This document shows, in pieces, positions 14,216 through 39,185 of a DNA stretch of 64,000 bases; positions within the stretch are counted from its first letter, which is position 1; each line of letters starts with the position of its first letter. The position numbers were made by a program, and so were the translations under genes. Source of the DNA: a virus (taxonomy: Duplodnaviria > Caudoviricetes); IMG/VR virus record IMGVR_UViG_3300020598_000119; one strand, 5' to 3'. The notes beneath the pieces are model-generated. The model saw nothing but the letters and a program-made list of their open reading frames with translations, searched no databases and was not told the origin of the DNA.

Positions 14216-15364
14216 ATGGGAAATCAAATTGCGGGTGAATTGACGCTCAAGAACAACGTCAAAATTCTTTCTGATGCAAAGGCGAAGAAAGAGAAGCGCG
14301 AAGTGACTGAATACCTTCAGACATCGCTGTTCTCCTTGCTAGAACAGAACCAGACCAATTGCACTGCCCTATACGACCTTGCCCCGCGTTTCATTAGCCG
14401 CGTTGAGCGGCCGGACGACACGGCGTATTTGGTCGCCATCAAAAAGGATTTCACCTTCAACGGCGAGCCATATCGCGTGACTGTAAGCCCTGCACGCGTG
14501 ATCCAGCAGGATGGCAGTGAACGCGACGAGCTGCCCGGCGAGCGCGAACAGCTTGTTGAAGACGTCATTCGCAGGATGGCGGCTGATTGTATGAAGGTCC
14601 ATCAGGACCAAATTGAGATACCGTTCTCGATCTATGCCATTCATCGGGAACTCATGCGCCATGGCCACACCTTCAGCAAGCAGGAGGTCAAGGAGGCGCT
14701 CATCATCCTGAACAAGAGCAATATCGAGATCACGAAGATCGTCGAGGAAGGTAGCCGCAAGCCGAAGCCCGTTCTGTCGGCCGCTGCCTACCCTGTCTTG
14801 AAGTTTTCGGATGCGAGCGATCCCGAAAGCACGGCGTCTGTTCAGCTCAACCCGCTACTCGTTCAGGCGATCAAGTCGCTCGCTTTCGAGCAGATCAACT
14901 ACGACTGGATGATGCAGGTGAAGGGGTCCCTGCCTCGGTGGATTTTCAAGTACATTTCTTTGATGCTGGCTGACACAACGGATGACAGCCATACGATCCA
15001 ACTCTCAGCGGCCGAGATCGCTCGTTCTTTCGGCCACATCAGGGTGCGCTGGCGGGCCTCTTTGATGGAAGTCGAAAAAGCATTCGATTCCCTCCAGAAG
15101 TTCGGCATCATTGACAGCATCGAGAAGCAGGAAGTCTATTCAGGGAAAAAGAAGGAAGACATTACCTTCACCGCGAAACTCTCGTCAAAGTTCATGGCCG
15201 ACCGCATCAACGCCAAGGGGCGGCGGTCGTTTATCGAAAGTGAAGTGAAGCGGCGCGTGGAACCGAACCAAGTAGCCAAGTTTTACCCTCTCACAGCAAA
15301 CGAAGCTGGTGACCTTGCCAAGTCCTACAAGGACAACGTGGTCGTATTAGGCAAAGCTAGGTAG
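14216..15364 (+). CDS. repA: plasmid replication initiator (IncA/C-like RepA family)
   Basis: 'LYDLAPRF', 'LPGEREQLVEDVIRR', 'FSIY.I.REL...GH.FS..EVKEAL'; upstream iterons. Confidence 0.8.
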   Translation: MGNQIAGELTLKNNVKILSDAKAKKEKREVTEYLQTSLFSLLEQNQTNCTALYDLAPRFISRVERPDDTAYLVAIKKDFTFNGEPYRVTVSPARVIQQDGSERDELPGEREQLVEDVIRRMAADCMKVHQDQIEIPFSIYAIHRELMRHGHTFSKQEVKEALIILNKSNIEITKIVEEGSRKPKPVLSAAAYPVLKFSDASDPESTASVQLNPLLVQAIKSLAFEQINYDWMMQVKGSLPRWIFKYISLMLADTTDDSHTIQLSAAEIARSFGHIRVRWRASLMEVEKAFDSLQKFGIIDSIEKQEVYSGKKKEDITFTAKLSSKFMADRINAKGRRSFIESEVKRRVEPNQVAKFYPLTANEAGDLAKSYKDNVVVLGKAR

Positions 15365-16276
15365 ACGCTCGTCCTTCAGACCGTCCCAACCTTCTGACGG
15401 CATCCATCGTGCATCCGTAGCGGTGTCTTCGGACATTGCGGGGATTAAAAATTCGCGCATTTCTGCGATGACAGCGACGAGGTCTATGTCGTCCTTGAGG
15501 TTCGTCTTACGCAGGAATGCACGCCATGCGCGCTCGTTCTCACGACCGAACTCATCTGACAAACCCGGCATGTTTGGATCGATGACACGGCCTTGGTGCT
15601 CGAATGTATTTGCGATAGCCCGCGACAAGACACTTCCTTCTATCTCGTATGAGTTCTGAATACGCCAGATGTCATAGTAATCCTTGTGTCGGGTGTTATC
15701 GCTGCCGAACTGGGCTATCGCATGAAGCTTCTCAGAGACAATGGTCTCAAGTGGGTACCCAGCAATAACAGGGCAGGGGACGACGTCCGGCAATAACGTT
15801 GGGATCTCCATTGGCACGGCGTCAGGCGTTATGACGTTCTGAAAGCCAACGTCCACGCGGATTTGAATACGGGCAGTATGTACCTTGCCTGTCAAAACCA
15901 CCTTGCCACCAGGAATGATGCCCTCACGATCCTTGAGCGTCTTCATGGTATCGAGATCGAAGGTAACACCGTCATCTGGAACAGGCGTCGAAATGGCCAT
16001 ACGGATCGTCTTCTCGATCTCTTCGATGCCGCCTTCCCCGAAGCCATTAAAGTCTATGTCCTCAGTGGGACGCAGGACATCGCCGTTGTTATAGGCGGCC
16101 AGCATCAGACCTCCCTTGAGACAAAAATTCGAGGCGGCGTCACAGACGGAAATCCGATAGAGAAGTCGCTGCTGGGCGTACAGACGAACAAGCGACTGCA
16201 TATCAAGACCAGACGCCTTAGCCTGGGCCTTCAGCTTGTCATAAACGCTCGCTCCGATATTCTTAGTCTCAGCCAT
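15347..16276 (-). CDS. abiEii: AbiEii-family nucleotidyltransferase toxin (type IV TA)
   Basis: 'LKGG...RPTEDIDF', 'ETIVSEKLHA', 'R.KDYYD'. Confidence 0.9.
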   Translation of the reverse strand: MAETKNIGASVYDKLKAQAKASGLDMQSLVRLYAQQRLLYRISVCDAASNFCLKGGLMLAAYNNGDVLRPTEDIDFNGFGEGGIEEIEKTIRMAISTPVPDDGVTFDLDTMKTLKDREGIIPGGKVVLTGKVHTARIQIRVDVGFQNVITPDAVPMEIPTLLPDVVPCPVIAGYPLETIVSEKLHAIAQFGSDNTRHKDYYDIWRIQNSYEIEGSVLSRAIANTFEHQGRVIDPNMPGLSDEFGRENERAWRAFLRKTNLKDDIDLVAVIAEMREFLIPAMSEDTATDARWMPSEGWDGLKDERLPSFA

Positions 16277-16342
16277 ATCTTCTCTCCTGAATTCAAGGTG
16301 AGAGACGGCCATGAAATGAACAAGCCGGAAGTGTCTGGAGAT

Positions 16343-17023
16343 TTAGAAGGAAGGAACCTCTGAGCGCACATAACGAACTGTCTTCGTATATGGGCGGATC
16401 GCCTCGTAACATTTAAAAGTTCGAGCAATCGCAGCAACCGTATCAAATGAAAAGTGCTTCATGTTCTCTGAATTCGTTCGGTTCAACGACTCCAAGAACA
16501 TCTCATCCGTGATTCGGACCTGATCCATGCGCATGCTTGGATTAAACGTGCTGTATCTGAAAAGATCGACAAGGGTTCTCTCTGGAGATGTGACTTTGAC
16601 ATTGACGCCGTCGATCACGTGGTCGTCGACACCAATCTCAAACATATCTGGGTTTCGCCACATCAACGTGTCGATCTCAAGCATCCACTGGTTAGCACCC
16701 ATTGAAGGGCTACCCCCCATTTCTCTAGGCACTGCGACCGACAGCTTCCCTGGAAGCTCTTGCGTCATGTTGTGAAATGAAGCGGCCGACAGAAGACAGA
16801 TCACCGACCTCGGGTACTTCTTAGCAACGAGCGCCCAGTCTGAATGAACATTCGTTTCGAACGATGTCAGACGATAGACACCCCAAGCTGGGTTCTCGAC
16901 CTCATTCGCCCTGATCAGAGAACGCATGATGGTCTTCGTGACACCATGCTTTTTGAGATCGGCCATCGTCAGAGGGCCATCAGCAGCCTTCAACAATTCT
17001 AGGGCGGTTTCGCGAGTGGTCAT
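16343..17023 (-). CDS. abiEi: AbiEi-family antitoxin/autorepressor
   Basis: wHTH 'GVYRL', 'VICLLSAASFH', 'VTSPERTLVDLFRY'. Confidence 0.88.
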   Translation of the reverse strand: MTTRETALELLKAADGPLTMADLKKHGVTKTIMRSLIRANEVENPAWGVYRLTSFETNVHSDWALVAKKYPRSVICLLSAASFHNMTQELPGKLSVAVPREMGGSPSMGANQWMLEIDTLMWRNPDMFEIGVDDHVIDGVNVKVTSPERTLVDLFRYSTFNPSMRMDQVRITDEMFLESLNRTNSENMKHFSFDTVAAIARTFKCYEAIRPYTKTVRYVRSEVPSF

Positions 17024-17562: not shown

Positions 17563-17709
17563 ATGAAAATTATGAGAGCATACAACAACTGGCGTCGATA
17601 TCGTGACACAGTGAACGAGCTGAACTCGCTTTCCAACCGCGAGTTGACCGATCTCGGCATTTCACGCGCTGACATCCCTTACATTGCCAAGCAGGCGGCC
17701 GTTCGCTGA
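17563..17709 (+). CDS. DUF1127 small protein (48 aa, not in ORF track)
   Basis: MKIMRAYNNWRRYRDTVNELNSLSNRELTDLGISRADIPYIAKQAAVR; AAGGA RBS. Confidence 0.9.
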   Translation: MKIMRAYNNWRRYRDTVNELNSLSNRELTDLGISRADIPYIAKQAAVR

Positions 17710-17754: not shown

Positions 17755-18080
17755 GAATTTGAAGAGAATGCCTTTAGCGACCGCCAGCAGCGTTATCGAT
17801 CTGCGAACGAGAGATACCGATATCGGCAAGAAGATGGTCGTCCAATTGACTGAGCTGATAAACAGCACGGCGATGATTAAGATACTGAGTTACTTTTTTA
17901 CGAATGTTCATTTCTTTTCCTCACATGAATAATCCTCTGAATTATAAATGGGCTTTGGCTTGAATATTTGCTATGGAATAAAACGCACACTAGCTATGCA
18001 TGGGAGGAATGGCTCGCATAATTATTATGCATGGGAAAAACTACAGTAGTGGCGAACTCAACAATCAATACGGAATGTAA

Positions 18081-18414: not shown

Positions 18415-18490
18415 TGGTGCCATCAGCGAGGATCGAACTCGCGACTTTCGGCTCTTCAGACCGACGCTCTACCAACTGAGCTACAATGGC
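18415..18490 (-). tRNA. tRNA-Phe(GAA)
   Basis: TCGGT-CT GAA GA-GCCGA, CCA. Confidence 0.92.
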
Positions 18491-18522
18491 TTAGAAAGGG
18501 CTTTCGCTCTTTCGATGATTTG

Positions 18523-18551
18523 ACTATGCCAGACACAAAAACCTGAGTCAA
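18523..18551 (-). promoter_or_regulatory. sigma70-like promoter immediately upstream of tRNA-Phe
   Basis: TTGACT-N17-CATAGT. Confidence 0.5.
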
Positions 18552-18717
18552 CAACAAAAATAAAAAAAGATAATATTTTCAAACGCTTACATGGAAAATC
18601 AGCATGCAAAAAGGCTTCTCGGGAAGTTCGTTCCCAAGCTAAAAATCAAACATTTCGCTCCTAAATCGAGCCTTTTTTCGCCGTCGTCGTCGCATCGCTT
18701 TCTCCAGTTTCAAGACA

Positions 18718-18766
18718 ATAAAAAAGGCTGGGGCTTCGTACCTTCCGGTAGAAGCCCCAGCCTTTG
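18718..18766 (-). terminator. attenuator terminator of the Phe/Arg tRNA operon
   Basis: AAAGGCTGGGGCTTC..GAAGCCCCAGCCTTTTTT on the minus strand. Confidence 0.8.
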
Positions 18767-18789
18767 CTTTAACAGTGATCAGTCTTAGA

Positions 18790-18876
18790 TCATGTCATGC
18801 GCAAGCGCGTTGGAAGCCATCCGACCGGATGTCCAATAACGCTAAATCGCCGACGAATGATCAAACCAACTGACAT
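18790..18876 (-). CDS. leader peptide MSVGLIIRRRFSVIGHPVGWLPTRLRMT (Arg/Phe control codons)
   Basis: AAAGGGA RBS; CGT CGG CGA TTT; stop about 25 nt before the terminator. Confidence 0.7.
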   Translation of the reverse strand: MSVGLIIRRRFSVIGHPVGWLPTRLRMT

Positions 18877-19335
18877 GTTTTTCCCTTTTAGATAGACCAG
18901 CTTTGGCTTGTTTCATAATTCATTTTCGAATTATGTCCCCACCGCCATTGAGGGGATCCAAATTTGTCATTGATTTGCTATGAAGCACCTCAATGGCGCA
19001 TCTGCACCATGCTTTGACACATAGGGCAGATATTCTGTGCATTAAACGGACAATGCATGATCCACATTAGTATGACCTTGATAATCCACTCACTGTAGCC
19101 ACGTCTCTGCGACGAACGAACCATCTGCGGTTCTTGGTCGAGCAGCTATCAAGCATACTGTGCAAATCAGACATATCCGTTTAATACTATTCACAAATCT
19201 AGCCATATTTAAGAAAATGGCAACTTATTTCTTTTTGCCTTTATGAATTTTTAACAGGGCAATTAAGGCCATCCACGCCATGAGGCGAATTATGAAACAA
19301 GCCACTTATATACAGGTCCCGACAACAGTCAAGAA

Positions 19336-19950
19336 TTATGGTTGCAGCCCCCTACTGTCCTCCAGGGTTTCGTTTAAGCGAGTGATCGTGGAATTAAGAT
19401 ATTGGCTAATGCTCTCAGCAGCTTCCTTCAACTCCGGTTCCATTACCTTAGGTCTGTCAAGAGCAAGTGCGCGCTGGGTAACAACCACCGGCGGCGTCTG
19501 CCCGCTACAGATATATGCGGCTGCCAGATGATCCGACAGGTCTGCTCCACCAGAAGTCAATGCGAAACCGGATATCATTGTGATGTCGTCTACCTGACCT
19601 GAAATCAAAACGCAGCTCAATCCGGCCGCGTACATGGCATTCGCGGCCGCCTGAGGGTCGACTGTCGGCGTACATGGCCAGAATACAGTCATCTGCGGAT
19701 GAAACTGCTGCTTCCACTCATCATGACCAGCCGTCCCCTTGAAGGAGGCGACGGCGAAGCGATAGGCCTCCTCCTCATCCTCTGGAACCACCAAGCCATT
19801 GGCGACAAGGTGGTCGGGGGAATAGTTAGCATCATAGAGATCGTCGTCGGACGGTTCTGGATAGACAATGAGTTTGTCCAGATCGCCGATACAAGACCAA
19901 TTGAACCGCGAGGGCGTTGCCAAAATGAAATCAGTAGATAGCTTGCTCAT
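19336..19950 (-). CDS. hypothetical protein
   Basis: 204-aa ORF. Confidence 0.55.
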   Translation of the reverse strand: MSKLSTDFILATPSRFNWSCIGDLDKLIVYPEPSDDDLYDANYSPDHLVANGLVVPEDEEEAYRFAVASFKGTAGHDEWKQQFHPQMTVFWPCTPTVDPQAAANAMYAAGLSCVLISGQVDDITMISGFALTSGGADLSDHLAAAYICSGQTPPVVVTQRALALDRPKVMEPELKEAAESISQYLNSTITRLNETLEDSRGLQP

Positions 19951-20565: not shown

Positions 20566-20784
20566 ATGGATGATGCAGATCGCGCAAGTGACATCGAGTT
20601 GGCCCGCGTACAGAAGAGCCTTCTAAGCATTAAAAAGGAATTGAAATTCGAACCTGATGACATTTACTGCATCGAATGCGGTGATGAAATTCCTGAAGAA
20701 CGCCGCCATGCAATGCCGAATTGTATCCGTTGCGTAACTTGCCAGGAACTCGACGAGCGTCCGCGTCGCGTCAAGAGGTACTAA
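20566..20784 (+). CDS. TraR/DksA C4 zinc-finger protein
   Basis: 'DDADRAS', 'CIECGDEIPEERRHAMPNCIRCVTCQE'. Confidence 0.9.
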   Translation: MDDADRASDIELARVQKSLLSIKKELKFEPDDIYCIECGDEIPEERRHAMPNCIRCVTCQELDERPRRVKRY

Positions 20785-26400: not shown

Positions 26401-28062
26401 ATCGCCGAGTGCGTTGATGTGTTTGAGATCACGCATCAGGTCTGAGAGATTCATTGCCTTTTCAGTAAGCACGAGAACCTTGCGTCCCTGCAGAGCCGCA
26501 CGCTTGACCAGCGCCATAAGGGCACGTCCTTTACCGACGCCAGTGTTATCCGCGAACAGGAACGCACGACCGCGCTCTTCCGCGTGGATTGCCAGACCAA
26601 CACCATCGATCTGTTCTGGAGAAAGCCTCTCGCCCAATTCATCCAGCGGAATGCCGCACTCGATAGAGACACGCTTGTCGACGTCTTCAAAATTTTCGAC
26701 CAAGCGGTTCAGGGCAGAACGAGTCGCCTCGTCCAGTTCCTTCGGCACCATAGTAATTGGTTTATTCGTTTTAGAAGCGGACTTGTACGGTACCTGATGG
26801 GAATTCTGAGCCATTGTAGCGGCCGTAAGCTCCGCTCCCGTAGAAAGGCCAGAGCGAACGCTTTCCATCGCGCGGGCGCGTTCCGAGACCGTAACTGATG
26901 CCCACGACCAAAACGCAGCTTCGTCATTGATCTCAGCGATAGCTGGAATTTCAGCCGGATCACCAATGGAAGACGTCACGACCAGCGACTTGCTCGACTG
27001 ACCGAGATCGACCAATGCCGCTGCTTCGACTGGACCGTGCTTCGCCAACTCTGCCAAGACCACTGACGCAGCGTTCATATCGGCAACAGGAACGAAGCTG
27101 ACAGTCATTGACCTAGCCTTTCGCCCCCGCAGGTCGGCGAGCGCCGTTTCCTTACTGTCTGCAAAAGATAGAACGAAGTCGGCTTCTTCCGCTTTTTCAG
27201 CAGCGCGAACAGCTTTCGGTTTAAACTGATCGAACAGATCGGAGCGACCACCTGACAAATAGATGGAATGACCAAGAAGATCTCGATCCATGCCGAGGAG
27301 GCGGCGTCCAATTACGATCTGATCAAAATTGCTGTCTTTACCGAGATCGTACTTTTCAAAAGCACGAGCGATATCGAGAGAAACAGAGAAGCGTTCGCGA
27401 AGGGTTTTGATGCCTTTGCGGCCGACGAAACGAAGGGCTGCTTCTTTAACTGCAGTAACGAATTCATCCTTACGCGAAGGCTCGACACCAATTGTCTTCA
27501 TGTAGGTATCGATGCTGATCATCTGATCAGTGCCATGCGTCTTTACAGCGGTTTCAACAAAGCCTTCGGCACACATGGTGAAAGAGGTTTCGTCGACGGC
27601 ACGCAGGAACATGCCTGGGCTACTTGCGGCCATGCCCTTCTCTTTGATCTGACGACCTCTGGAGTCGACAAAAACGCGCTCGCCATTTTCTTCAACGATC
27701 TTCTGACCCTGTCTATTGTAGCCCAGGAGGACAGCCTTCTTGATATCTGATGTACTGATCAGATCTGACGAAGCATCAGTGTCCGCAGATGGCTTAGGCG
27801 GCTCGATACGGAGGACGTACTCTCCCTGTTCGTGCTCACGGATTTTCAGATTCGGAAACTCGCGCTGAAATTCACGCGGGTTGAGCTGCGTTGCATTAGG
27901 CTTGATCCAACTATTTCCTGTTGGTCGTTTTTGAAAGCCAAGGCGGCGAACGGCATCAATATGCTGATCAGGAACTTTATCCAACAGTAAAACTTGTGCA
28001 GTCGGCATAACTGCAAGGTGCAGTTTCATCCCATATTCAGATAAATCAAGCCACTTCGCCAT
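23416..28062 (-). CDS. strawberry-notch family SF2 helicase/ATPase
   Basis: 'EQIDGV', 'ADNTGVGKGR', 'TYSQ', 'DEIH', 'SATF', 'AGSTGIDLHAS', 'Q.YGRV.R'. Confidence 0.88.
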   Translation of the reverse strand: MAKWLDLSEYGMKLHLAVMPTAQVLLLDKVPDQHIDAVRRLGFQKRPTGNSWIKPNATQLNPREFQREFPNLKIREHEQGEYVLRIEPPKPSADTDASSDLISTSDIKKAVLLGYNRQGQKIVEENGERVFVDSRGRQIKEKGMAASSPGMFLRAVDETSFTMCAEGFVETAVKTHGTDQMISIDTYMKTIGVEPSRKDEFVTAVKEAALRFVGRKGIKTLRERFSVSLDIARAFEKYDLGKDSNFDQIVIGRRLLGMDRDLLGHSIYLSGGRSDLFDQFKPKAVRAAEKAEEADFVLSFADSKETALADLRGRKARSMTVSFVPVADMNAASVVLAELAKHGPVEAAALVDLGQSSKSLVVTSSIGDPAEIPAIAEINDEAAFWSWASVTVSERARAMESVRSGLSTGAELTAATMAQNSHQVPYKSASKTNKPITMVPKELDEATRSALNRLVENFEDVDKRVSIECGIPLDELGERLSPEQIDGVGLAIHAEERGRAFLFADNTGVGKGRALMALVKRAALQGRKVLVLTEKAMNLSDLMRDLKHINALGDVKPVVMNQDASLIDESTGKAFELGDRSILEKAIADKTWPDDIPVVFATYSQFNQSPEDSARAAWLREVIDAETLVVGDEIHVAASGNSNTSENIAHAIEASGPPVLSSATFAGDARAMAFFERLFPYGMSGSEIAAMMRKGGEQFMEVVSSMLVTDGVMIRREKDMSKLEISQHLDSERVERNRNHMDALAAVIGEMAVLSGEMDRVVNARNNTDGSLLKGIQLKRMGFGSPLYTMIRLFSAALLAEFAAERAVTALQNGEKPIVLVENTIQGILKDAELDGGDAPDFKDVMRRILGQLTKMSYTDDDGGLNRVDAAEGNEAVQATLSHINAMIDQLPDLPASAIDVVKGKIRDAGFSCGEITGRVLEVVDGKVVPRKERNVTKTKNSFNAGEVDALVINSAGSTGIDLHASRRFKDQRRRVMIELQGPAYVLKQIQAYGRVSRYDEVVPSRVEVLSSGLPVEVRLAAMRNQKLRRLSANVTSNRDSIFLTKNIPDLINSVGDQVVSKYAEMRPDLVKKLCLSYVDEEGVVNVPGTDEDVESESRQDNDRSANEFMSRLALLPTDYQEKVLSELTAEYELHIAELEARGENPLRPKELEGMVHIRDARLFEGNENSAAVTAFDGPMHIRDVVIERVAESIRSEALMEAVEAGTEVYGEVEKAADNITESPEVYLEIYMPKNIRTVQEALEKNNPKLMQIKSDMEITAAALRALIPGREVELAHGLDAEKVKAIVTAVYAPPSGYHHLRSQYTVSLAIPGQTRITSVRLSTLLQDMQVATFEKNGGVKFNVSDGLTGSDYDKVLERFEGASAKKLTPARILSTNIFRAVRLATKYNLGQMISYVDSEGNRHRGVLVKKNFESHLEKLAVRLDGVEQALNALVDKRAEVTNSATSSKNALKISPFGRDTWNLTIPAPRNSRAGRKWPSEAFKELFESGELTSNTHSSVTITSVDDLRDVLEILNNSGINTFYVDSKYRRDFVDENEHQAKALEMCA

Positions 28063-39107: not shown

Positions 39108-39185
39108 TGGCTTGAACGGCAAGGATTTGAACCTGCGACCTCCTGGACCCATTCCAGGCGCGCTCCCAGACTGCGCTACATTCAA
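39108..39185 (-). tRNA. degenerate tRNA-Pro-like (TGG, A at position 33)
   Basis: Pro-type D-arm TAGCGCAGTCTGG, CCTGG-AA TGG GT-CCAGG, CCA. Confidence 0.55.

Follow-up and report, generated by a model that had tools for sequence, protein, structure and literature searches.

A candidate leader-peptide attenuator upstream of a tRNA-Phe-Arg-Arg-Arg cluster, with test codons cognate to the tRNAs encoded downstream

Described attenuators and the Arg/Phe tRNA locus

In leader-peptide attenuation, a ribosome stalled on the leader open reading frame (ORF) selects the antiterminator (PMC3082878, PMC1183508). Here we describe a candidate system of this type upstream of a tRNA-Phe-Arg-Arg-Arg cluster in the 64,000-nt stretch of DNA filed as IMG/VR virus record IMGVR_UViG_3300020598_000119 (Duplodnaviria; Caudoviricetes), hereafter termed the window, whose coordinates are used throughout; leader, ORFs, terminator, promoters and tRNA genes all lie on its minus strand (Table 1). 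The likeness to trpL, pheL, hisL, thrL, ilvL and pheST (pheM) extends to a Shine-Dalgarno sequence followed by a short ORF with regulatory codons (ORF A), to 1:2, 2:3 and 3:4 hairpins and to an intrinsic terminator (T1); the mixed Arg and Phe sensing predicted for ORF A recalls multivalent leaders, and pheM exemplifies the same logic on a gene of the translation apparatus (pheST). Unlike in the attenuators of amino-acid and synthetase genes, the presumably controlled genes are the very tRNAs that read the test codons, and not biosynthetic enzymes or a synthetase, so that the signal can be tRNA supply as well as charging. The locus further departs from the classical design, with its single upstream promoter, in that a putative second promoter (P2) is positioned downstream of T1 and would bypass the attenuator, and in that it matches no leader family of Rfam.

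Leader-peptide attenuation also operates in rhizobia, where two reports on Sinorhizobium ascribe trans-acting roles to the terminated leader RNA (rnTrpL) and to the leader peptide (peTrpL) (PMC7298713, PMC7968998); the Sinorhizobium meliloti trpL leader, however, controls trpE(G), senses Trp and has no sequence similarity to the ORF A leader. T-box riboswitches likewise report the state of a specific tRNA by a terminator/antiterminator decision and control translation-related genes, but they bind uncharged tRNA directly and have no ORF, whereas it is the geometry of an ORF plus ribosome that fits the present locus. The closest functional analogue is the megaplasmid trn operon of Anabaena sp. 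PCC 7120, which is induced when translation is impaired and is controlled by the repressor TrcR (PMC8421152, PMC10272220). Its spare tRNA genes are, as at the present locus, carried on a large accessory replicon, and are silent or low in normal growth. TrcR, however, is a ribbon-helix-helix protein that binds direct repeats over the -10 region and start site of one promoter serving 26 genes, whereas control at the Arg/Phe locus would be cis-acting, codon-specific and set per amino-acid group. A TrcR-type operator was discarded for the window, since the direct repeats (TGTWNWWNWNNWGTANYNWA; PMC8421152) gave one chance-level match at 27443 and none near the tRNA arrays.

With regard to the promoter next to the tRNA genes, rrn P1/P2, pheU and pheV of Escherichia coli resemble P2 in their A/T-rich upstream block, near-consensus -35 hexamer and short leader to the tRNA. 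The pheU and pheV genes (NC_000913.3) have TTGACG-N17-TTTAAT a few bases before the tRNA, a geometry like that of a P2-type promoter preceding tRNA-Lys in a related array (see below). We rejected the possibility of a Phe-rich leader at pheU and pheV, which on NC_000913.3 have plain promoters with no leader ORF or terminator upstream, whereas at the Arg/Phe locus transcripts arriving from upstream would be gated by the attenuator before P2. Full-text searching of the literature did not bring up any report of tRNA genes controlled by leader-peptide attenuation.

Leader ORF A, its alternative RNA folds and the proposed switch

On the basis of sequence and modelled RNA folds, we regard it as fairly probable that ORF A and three alternative RNA structures constitute a working ribosome-mediated transcription attenuator with tRNAs as its output. 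The tRNA genes themselves score 49.9–68.6 bits against Rfam RF00005. According to the wobble rules, Arg(ACG), read as ICG, decodes CGU, CGC and CGA, whereas CCG decodes CGG, and GAA decodes UUU and UUC. The four consecutive test codons of ORF A are cognate to every isoacceptor encoded downstream, namely Arg(ACG, presumably inosine-modified), Arg(CCG) and Phe(GAA). An initial annotation, made by a model from the letters alone, had drawn attention to a leader with CGT CGG CGA TTT and to the match of these codons to the downstream anticodons ACG, CCG, ACG and GAA; the leader was indeed found there, with the four codons at positions 8–11 of ORF A, and the anticodons agree with the ARAGORN and Rfam calls. 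Among the 557 small ATG-initiated ORFs of the window, Arg/Phe-cognate codons account for 11.5% of all codons, and a cognate run of at least four occurs in three, two of which are ORF A and a second mini-ORF further downstream (ORF B). The Shine-Dalgarno-like AAGGGA upstream of ORF A has a pairing energy of -5.9 kcal/mol, equal to the 10th percentile of 2328 window ATGs, as calculated (here and for ORF B) with a generic anti-Shine-Dalgarno sequence that may not be the host's.

Table 1. Positions of the predicted elements of the Arg/Phe locus
Feature	Coordinates	Strand	Description
Leader promoter P1 (putative)	19332-19305	minus	TTGACT (19332-19327), 16-nt spacer, TATAAG (19310-19305)
MITE-like insertion	18904-19304		401 bp, between P1 -10 hexamer and ORF A
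Leader hairpin H1 (segments 1:2)	18879-18771	minus	minimum-energy fold, -40.9 kcal/mol
Leader ORF A	18876-18790	minus	28 codons + TGA; product MSVGLIIRRRFSVIGHPVGWLPTRLRMT
Test codons	18855-18844	minus	CGT CGG CGA TTT, codons 8–11 of ORF A
Antiterminator (segments 2:3)	18829-18745	minus	predicted, -35.1 kcal/mol
Intrinsic terminator T1 (segments 3:4)	18765-18717	minus	19-pair G+C-rich stem, then UUUUUUAUU; -34.8 kcal/mol
Mini-ORF B (candidate)	18695-18639	minus	MRRRRRKKARFRSEMFDF + TAG; CGA x6, CGG, AGG, TTT x3; between T1 and P2
Hairpin T2, including tail	18638-18608	minus	CUUGGGAA-CGAAC-UUCCCGAG, 8 pairs (18638-18618), then AAGCCUUUUU; begins right after ORF B stop
Internal promoter P2 (putative)	18582-18523	minus	T-rich block TTGAAA...ATTTTTGTTG (18582-18552), -35 TTGACT (18551-18546), -10 CATAGT (18528-18523)
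tRNA cluster	18490-18081	minus	4 genes
tRNA-Phe(GAA)	18490-18415	minus	ARAGORN + Rfam
tRNA-Arg(ACG), first copy	18359-18282	minus	ARAGORN + Rfam
tRNA-Arg(ACG), second copy	18240-18165	minus	ARAGORN + Rfam
tRNA-Arg(CCG)	18156-18081	minus	ARAGORN + Rfam

The 181-nt leader folds at -76.3 kcal/mol (z = -7.8 versus shuffles). Its hairpin H1 spans the start codon and the entire ORF A, with the 5' strand of the antiterminator held in the apical part. With a ribosome placed at any of codons 8–11 (R8–F11) and the 3' arm of T1 still unmade, the antiterminator becomes the computed minimum-energy fold, a long irregular hairpin in which the strand UCCGGUCGGAUGGCUUCC pairs with the 5' arm of T1. Its pairings (UCCGGU/ACCGGA, GGCUUCC/GGGGCU and the apical hairpin UGACAUGAUC/GAUCACUGUUA) are the same as those listed in the initial annotation, which had also placed the stop codon near the antiterminator apex; in the computed fold, the UGA directly adjoins it. 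The antiterminator pairs 20 of the 23 bases of the T1 5' arm, while at least 20 paired bases were reached in only 2 of 1000 shuffles, and its energy is well below expectation (z = -4.8; 1000 dinucleotide shuffles of the upstream part). With the ribosome on the ORF A stop codon instead, constrained folding indicates that T1 alone can form. H1, antiterminator and T1 are of similar stability and are arranged as in classical attenuators. The attenuator proposed at the outset is supported in silico by leader ORF, cognate codons, T1 and an exceptional antiterminator.

The Arg/Phe locus is also present, at 94% identity, on contig 2 of Mesorhizobium sp. SP-1A (NZ_JAVXZD010000002.1, 1,189,113 bp; locus at ~935.7-936.7 kb), which served as the comparison genome. 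ORF A with its Shine-Dalgarno sequence is free of differences over 114 nt, and the 74 nt from the stop codon to the end of T1 (18789-18716) contain a single one, at 18771 upstream of the T1 stem, with T1 itself being identical. Taken together, ORF A and T1 thus differ at 1 of 188 nt, for which P is 5e-6 to 2e-10 at the rates of the adjacent gene for a 204-aa protein, whose DNA is 92.0% identical and whose third codon positions have diverged by 13.7%. The tRNA genes are 96–100% identical, the spacer between the T2 hairpin and P2 is 61% identical and one inter-tRNA spacer 68.5%.

Conservation of the RRRF run in homologues had been proposed as a check on the leader; it holds in SP-1A, where ORF A is 100% identical, but a more distant homologue was not found. 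A DNA search of 401 family and 202 genus genomes returned the locus only from SP-1A, as did a protein search in which 401 genomes of the order were queried with a relative (51% identity) of the 204-aa protein encoded next to the locus; the relatives of this neighbour comprise a cluster at 93% identity (seven contigs) and the 51% relative used as query. Plasmids in PLSDB gave tRNA-level matches only. Scans with the P2 block as a pattern yielded, in GTDB genomes (among the matches listed), metagenomes and IMG/VR, chance matches only, with no tRNA downstream, and a protein scan of IMG/VR found nothing. In Rfam, only the tRNAs reach the gathering score, with no match to a Phe, His, Leu, Thr or Trp leader or to a T-box, and a permissive search of 18480-19340 yielded no score above 20 bits and showed neither a leader family nor a T-box.

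The comparison was widened to seven tRNA arrays of the replicon, three in the window (Arg/Phe, Ser/Gln and Leu/Pro/His/Tyr) and four on SP-1A contig 2, i.e. Trp/Thr/Cys/Arg(TCT), Lys, Glu/Asp and a multi-amino-acid array (Asn/Val/Gly/Ala/Met/Ile/Thr). All seven have a leader ORF and a terminator, and the amino-acid specificity differs from array to array. In a leader-by-array matrix, five of the seven first leaders, as well as both enriched second ORFs, have their longest cognate run on their own array, with own-array run lengths of 15, 16, 9, 8 and 4–5; the longest run of the Glu/Asp leader ties with another array. At most arrays the T1-type 5' arm can pair upstream with energies 3–5 standard deviations better than shuffles, and the Arg/Phe antiterminator stands out most when judged by arm pairing. 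The order P1, leader, T1, P2 and tRNAs is found in four of the seven (Arg/Phe, Glu/Asp, multi-amino-acid and Lys), while in the remaining three there is a single promoter, preceded by an A-rich block, and the attenuator immediately adjoins the first tRNA. When the paralogous arrays were compared, their ORF A regions could not be aligned beyond the -35 hexamer.

From these computed features (sequence elements, fold energies, codon matching and conservation) we infer a scheme of promoter activity, translation, stalling and read-through that would operate as follows. Transcripts starting at P1 would carry the 28-codon test ORF. As long as Arg-tRNA(ICG), Arg-tRNA(CCG) and Phe-tRNA(GAA) are plentiful, the ribosome would reach the UGA and cover the antiterminator apex, thereby permitting T1 to form and transcription to stop ~230 nt before the tRNA genes; if ORF A is left untranslated, H1 would form and T1 would terminate again. 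Slow decoding of CGU-CGG-CGA-UUU, by contrast, would leave a stalled ribosome that melts the lower part of H1 and sets free its 3' strand, which would then fold as the antiterminator and tie up the 20 of 23 bases in the T1 5' arm. RNA polymerase would read on via ORF B and P2 into tRNA-Phe-Arg-Arg-Arg, and the newly made tRNAs would speed decoding of the test codons, closing a direct feedback loop. P2, firing 32 nt before tRNA-Phe, would add basal expression independent of the attenuator. The low-GC rhizobial replicon, in other words, probably makes spare tRNAs at a basal rate that is boosted when decoding slows.

P1, ORF B and the insertion listed in Table 1 did not figure in the initial annotation. 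P1, promoter-like by its sequence, has no A/T-rich upstream block; in SP-1A, 24 nt separate it from the start codon of ORF A, with one spacer mismatch between the genomes. In the window, P1 and ORF A are separated by the insertion, which resembles a miniature inverted-repeat transposable element (MITE) and might derive from an IS3-like element. Its ends are perfect inverted repeats of 18 bp (TGGCTTGTTTCATAATTC; 19304-19287 and 18921-18904), flanked by a duplicated 3-bp target, AAG (19307-19305 and 18903-18901). In SP-1A this site is empty, and a single further copy (89% identity) is found elsewhere (contig 2, 316227-316625). The repeats start with TG and end with CA, and with 401 bp the element is too short to encode a transposase; only two copies were seen. 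As RNA, the insertion is strongly folded (z = -6.4). P1 transcripts would have to cross these 401 extra bases in the window, while SP-1A appears to keep the ancestral compact layout. Inside the MITE, a chance-level promoter match, TTGCCA-N16-TAGATT (19223-19196, minus), is aimed at ORF A and could drive the leader in this genome.

Several points weigh against the attenuator proposed here. The control run of ORF A, as had already been remarked in the initial annotation, is short, with only four codons. Once its 3' arm exists, T1 is the thermodynamic winner, which means that the switch must be kinetic, as in trp. Among the sister arrays, the Lys leader is weak, with just two AAA codons. There is only one orthologue, and its leader is identical, such that no covariation test is possible; recent gene conversion could mimic purifying selection. 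The strongly folded 401-bp insert that displaces P1 could impair coupling. Moreover, P2 may well be stronger than P1, because P1 is devoid of an upstream A/T block and P2 has one that is UP-like; as P2 is located downstream of the attenuator and looks stronger, the attenuated share of tRNA output could be small.

If the attenuator functions as proposed, ribosome-mediated attenuation would not be confined to protein-coding amino-acid operons but could govern tRNA genes as well. The feedback loop would then be the shortest possible, with a tRNA speeding the decoding of its own test codons and thereby shutting off its own synthesis. This would also explain how a megareplicon of 50% G+C in a host of 65% G+C matches tRNA supply to its own codons without host regulators. 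The G+C content is 50% for the window, 51% for SP-1A contig 2 and 65% for the large SP-1A contig taken as chromosomal. According to rough counts in long ORFs, CGT, AGA and TTT are all used far more on the element than on the large contig, with CGT contributing 26% versus 11% of Arg codons and TTT 40% versus 15% of Phe codons. The design principle that the Arg/Phe locus would add is the combination of a basal promoter with a demand-driven, attenuated one. Since the SP-1A assembly comes from a named strain and is not a metagenome-assembled genome, the strain is probably culturable and the idea would be directly testable; such leaders could further serve as compact codon-specific reporters of decoding speed.

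ORF B, promoter P2 and the rival readings

ORF B is real-looking by its sequence, and its role in the switch is that of a candidate. Its Shine-Dalgarno sequence GGAG (18705-18702) is a good one, with a pairing energy of -6.4 kcal/mol, such that both mini-ORFs rank within the most strongly pairing tenth of window ATGs. Nine of its 17 codons are Arg/Phe-cognate, including a run of five, and it is the sole ORF with at least 50% cognate codons among the 557 small ORFs. SP-1A keeps the frame and all Arg/Phe codons, with one synonymous and one E-to-K change; a 1-nt indel relative to SP-1A falls directly past the stop codon and breaks, in SP-1A, an antisense ORF (18591-18788, plus), which we rejected on these grounds. 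T2, the hairpin that follows, differs from SP-1A at 4 of 31 positions; the changes within the hairpin, two in the loop and one G-C to G-U replacement, are structure-neutral.

ORF B and T2 could act as a further checkpoint placed after ORF A, a reading that we consider possible, if on balance improbable. A ribosome held up at the last Phe codons or slow to leave the stop codon would cover the 5' arm of T2 and prevent a second round of termination or processing; in a variant, a ribosome stalled on the Arg run of ORF B would shield the read-through RNA from Rho. The unique codon composition, the Shine-Dalgarno sequence, the placement of the indel only past the stop codon and the structure-neutral changes in T2 are in line with such a function, and in the Glu/Asp array the corresponding place is taken by an ORF rich in Asp/Glu codons (10 of 24). 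However, the Lys array has no such ORF and that of the multi-amino-acid array is not enriched overall, while the conservation of ORF B with its Shine-Dalgarno sequence is no higher than that of its surroundings (4 of 78 nt differ; p = 0.26). T2, moreover, is not a canonical terminator, as its U run begins 5 nt past the stem; as a classical second terminator with an antiterminator it was rejected, since no complementary segment is evident, the region folds with z = -0.9 and the paralogous arrays have no equivalent hairpin. Low-complexity ancestry explains part of the signal as well, since the Arg run derives from a motif, GACGACGACGG, that is common to three loci and is elsewhere read in another frame.

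This motif (or its variant GACGACGAT) is situated at the start of ORF B (window 18680-18695) and recurs at L025 ~1396-1410 and L029 3592-3608; its reading frame gives Arg (CGA) at the Arg/Phe locus and Asp (GAC) at the other arrays. Its sharing looks like leader re-tuning by choice of frame, or like a conserved nucleic-acid motif. A separate observation concerns the ORF B codons AAAAAAGGCU (18669-18677), which are complementary to the tails of T1 (AGCCUUUUUU; 18716-18725) and T2 (AGCCUUUUU; 18608-18616) and may offer a further alternative pairing; the differences 18675 A>G and 18612 T>C between window and SP-1A fall in these tracts and are not compensatory in register.

Combined with P2, the two mini-ORFs might be viewed as a two-tier, self-referential controller of tRNA supply, in which P2, as a constitutive stable-RNA promoter, sets a floor and transcription from upstream has to clear two codon-matched checkpoints in turn before it contributes tRNA, ORF A (RRRF) with its classical switch and then ORF B (RRRRR..RF..F.F), the latter written almost wholly in the slowly decoded codons CGA and UUU and ending at the base of T2. 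We consider this extended scheme doubtful. If true, it would represent a tandem leader-peptide attenuator on stable RNA genes that evolved modularly on a mobile, low-GC replicon, the test codons being re-written to suit each set of tRNAs.

P2 itself is convincing as a shared and real promoter design, to the extent that this can be judged from sequence. The site TTGACT-N17-CATAGT pointed out in the initial annotation is present at 18551-18523, its -10 hexamer being TG-extended and ending 32 nt before tRNA-Phe; the hexamer match alone, however, is at chance level (5 sites found versus 2.9 expected). The case for P2 is made by conservation at four arrays, together with the tRNA-promoter geometry before tRNA-Lys in SP-1A, where the P2-type -10 hexamer ends 13 nt from the tRNA. 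The 37-nt block TTGAAA..ATTTTTGTTGTTGAC plus the -35 hexamer is found upstream of the Arg/Phe, Glu/Asp, multi-amino-acid and Lys arrays, in support of the second internal promoter suggested earlier, while the sequence around it has diverged beyond alignment. Three of the P2-bearing arrays also share the register of the -10 region and of an ATCATC motif, and both hexamers of the Arg/Phe P2 are unchanged between window and SP-1A. We also considered the block as the U tract of a terminator and rejected this, given that only a weak A-U hairpin precedes it.

P2 is interposed between attenuator and tRNAs, carries an UP-like block where P1 has none and, tRNAs aside, is better conserved among the paralogous arrays than any other element. 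These features might instead mean that essentially all tRNA transcription starts at P2, with P1, ORF A and T1 forming either a separate small gene that acts on its own through a structured terminated RNA of ~150 nt or a 28-aa peptide, or a relic without further influence on tRNA output. Such a reading would agree with the unusually structured leader RNA and with the tolerated insertion of the MITE at P1 in this genome, and trans-acting attenuator RNAs and peptides are on record for rhizobia in the reports cited above. It nevertheless strikes us as unlikely: a stand-alone small RNA needs neither an antiterminator that fits the arm of its own terminator to the extent seen here (20 of 23 nt, 2 of 1000 shuffles) nor test codons whose identity changes in step with that of the downstream tRNAs over seven arrays, and the near-perfect conservation of the leader speaks against a relic.

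That ORF A is spurious and T1 merely terminates the upstream 204-aa gene, whose stop codon just precedes P1, would suit the shortness of the run, the ~200-nt distance of T1 from that stop codon in SP-1A and the abundance of small ORFs (103 of at least 20 aa in 5.5 kb), but is highly improbable in view of the promoter-like site between this gene and the leader, the antiterminator statistics, the run frequency of 3 in 557, a leader better conserved than the coding gene and the same design at six other arrays.

Minor observations on sister arrays and neighbouring genes

In the multi-amino-acid array, 176 nt extend from the P2-type promoter to the first tRNA (L029 3776-3930; SP-1A contig 2 ~1063.8 kb). 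They hold another (CGA)-repeat ORF, MNDDRRRRRSLPL..., without an obvious Shine-Dalgarno sequence or terminator. The lowest-scoring tRNA of the Leu/Pro/His/Tyr array is Pro (anticodon TGG; 39108-39185, minus; 31.8 bits), and the corresponding SP-1A gene (L031 16302-16378) is called as tRNA-Ser(GGA); this gene may be decaying or anticodon-shifted.

Two convergent genes for DUF1127 proteins of 45–48 aa are found directly downstream of the Arg/Phe tRNA cluster, at 17563-17709 (plus) and 17774-17911 (minus), with Pfam E values of 1e-17 and 6e-13. At a distance of 1 kb downstream of the cluster, an AbiEii-type nucleotidyltransferase toxin is encoded at 15347-17023 (minus; Pfam E = 9e-34), accompanied by an AbiEi-like antitoxin whose weak match is slightly under the Pfam cut-off. 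Certain toxins related to this class have tRNAs as their targets, and the presence of such a gene near the cluster may have a bearing on why the replicon carries spare tRNAs. Also near the locus, at 20566-20784 (plus), a 72-aa DksA/TraR-type C4 zinc-finger protein (Pfam E = 4.5e-10) is a possible candidate for an RNA-polymerase-binding regulator of stable-RNA promoters.

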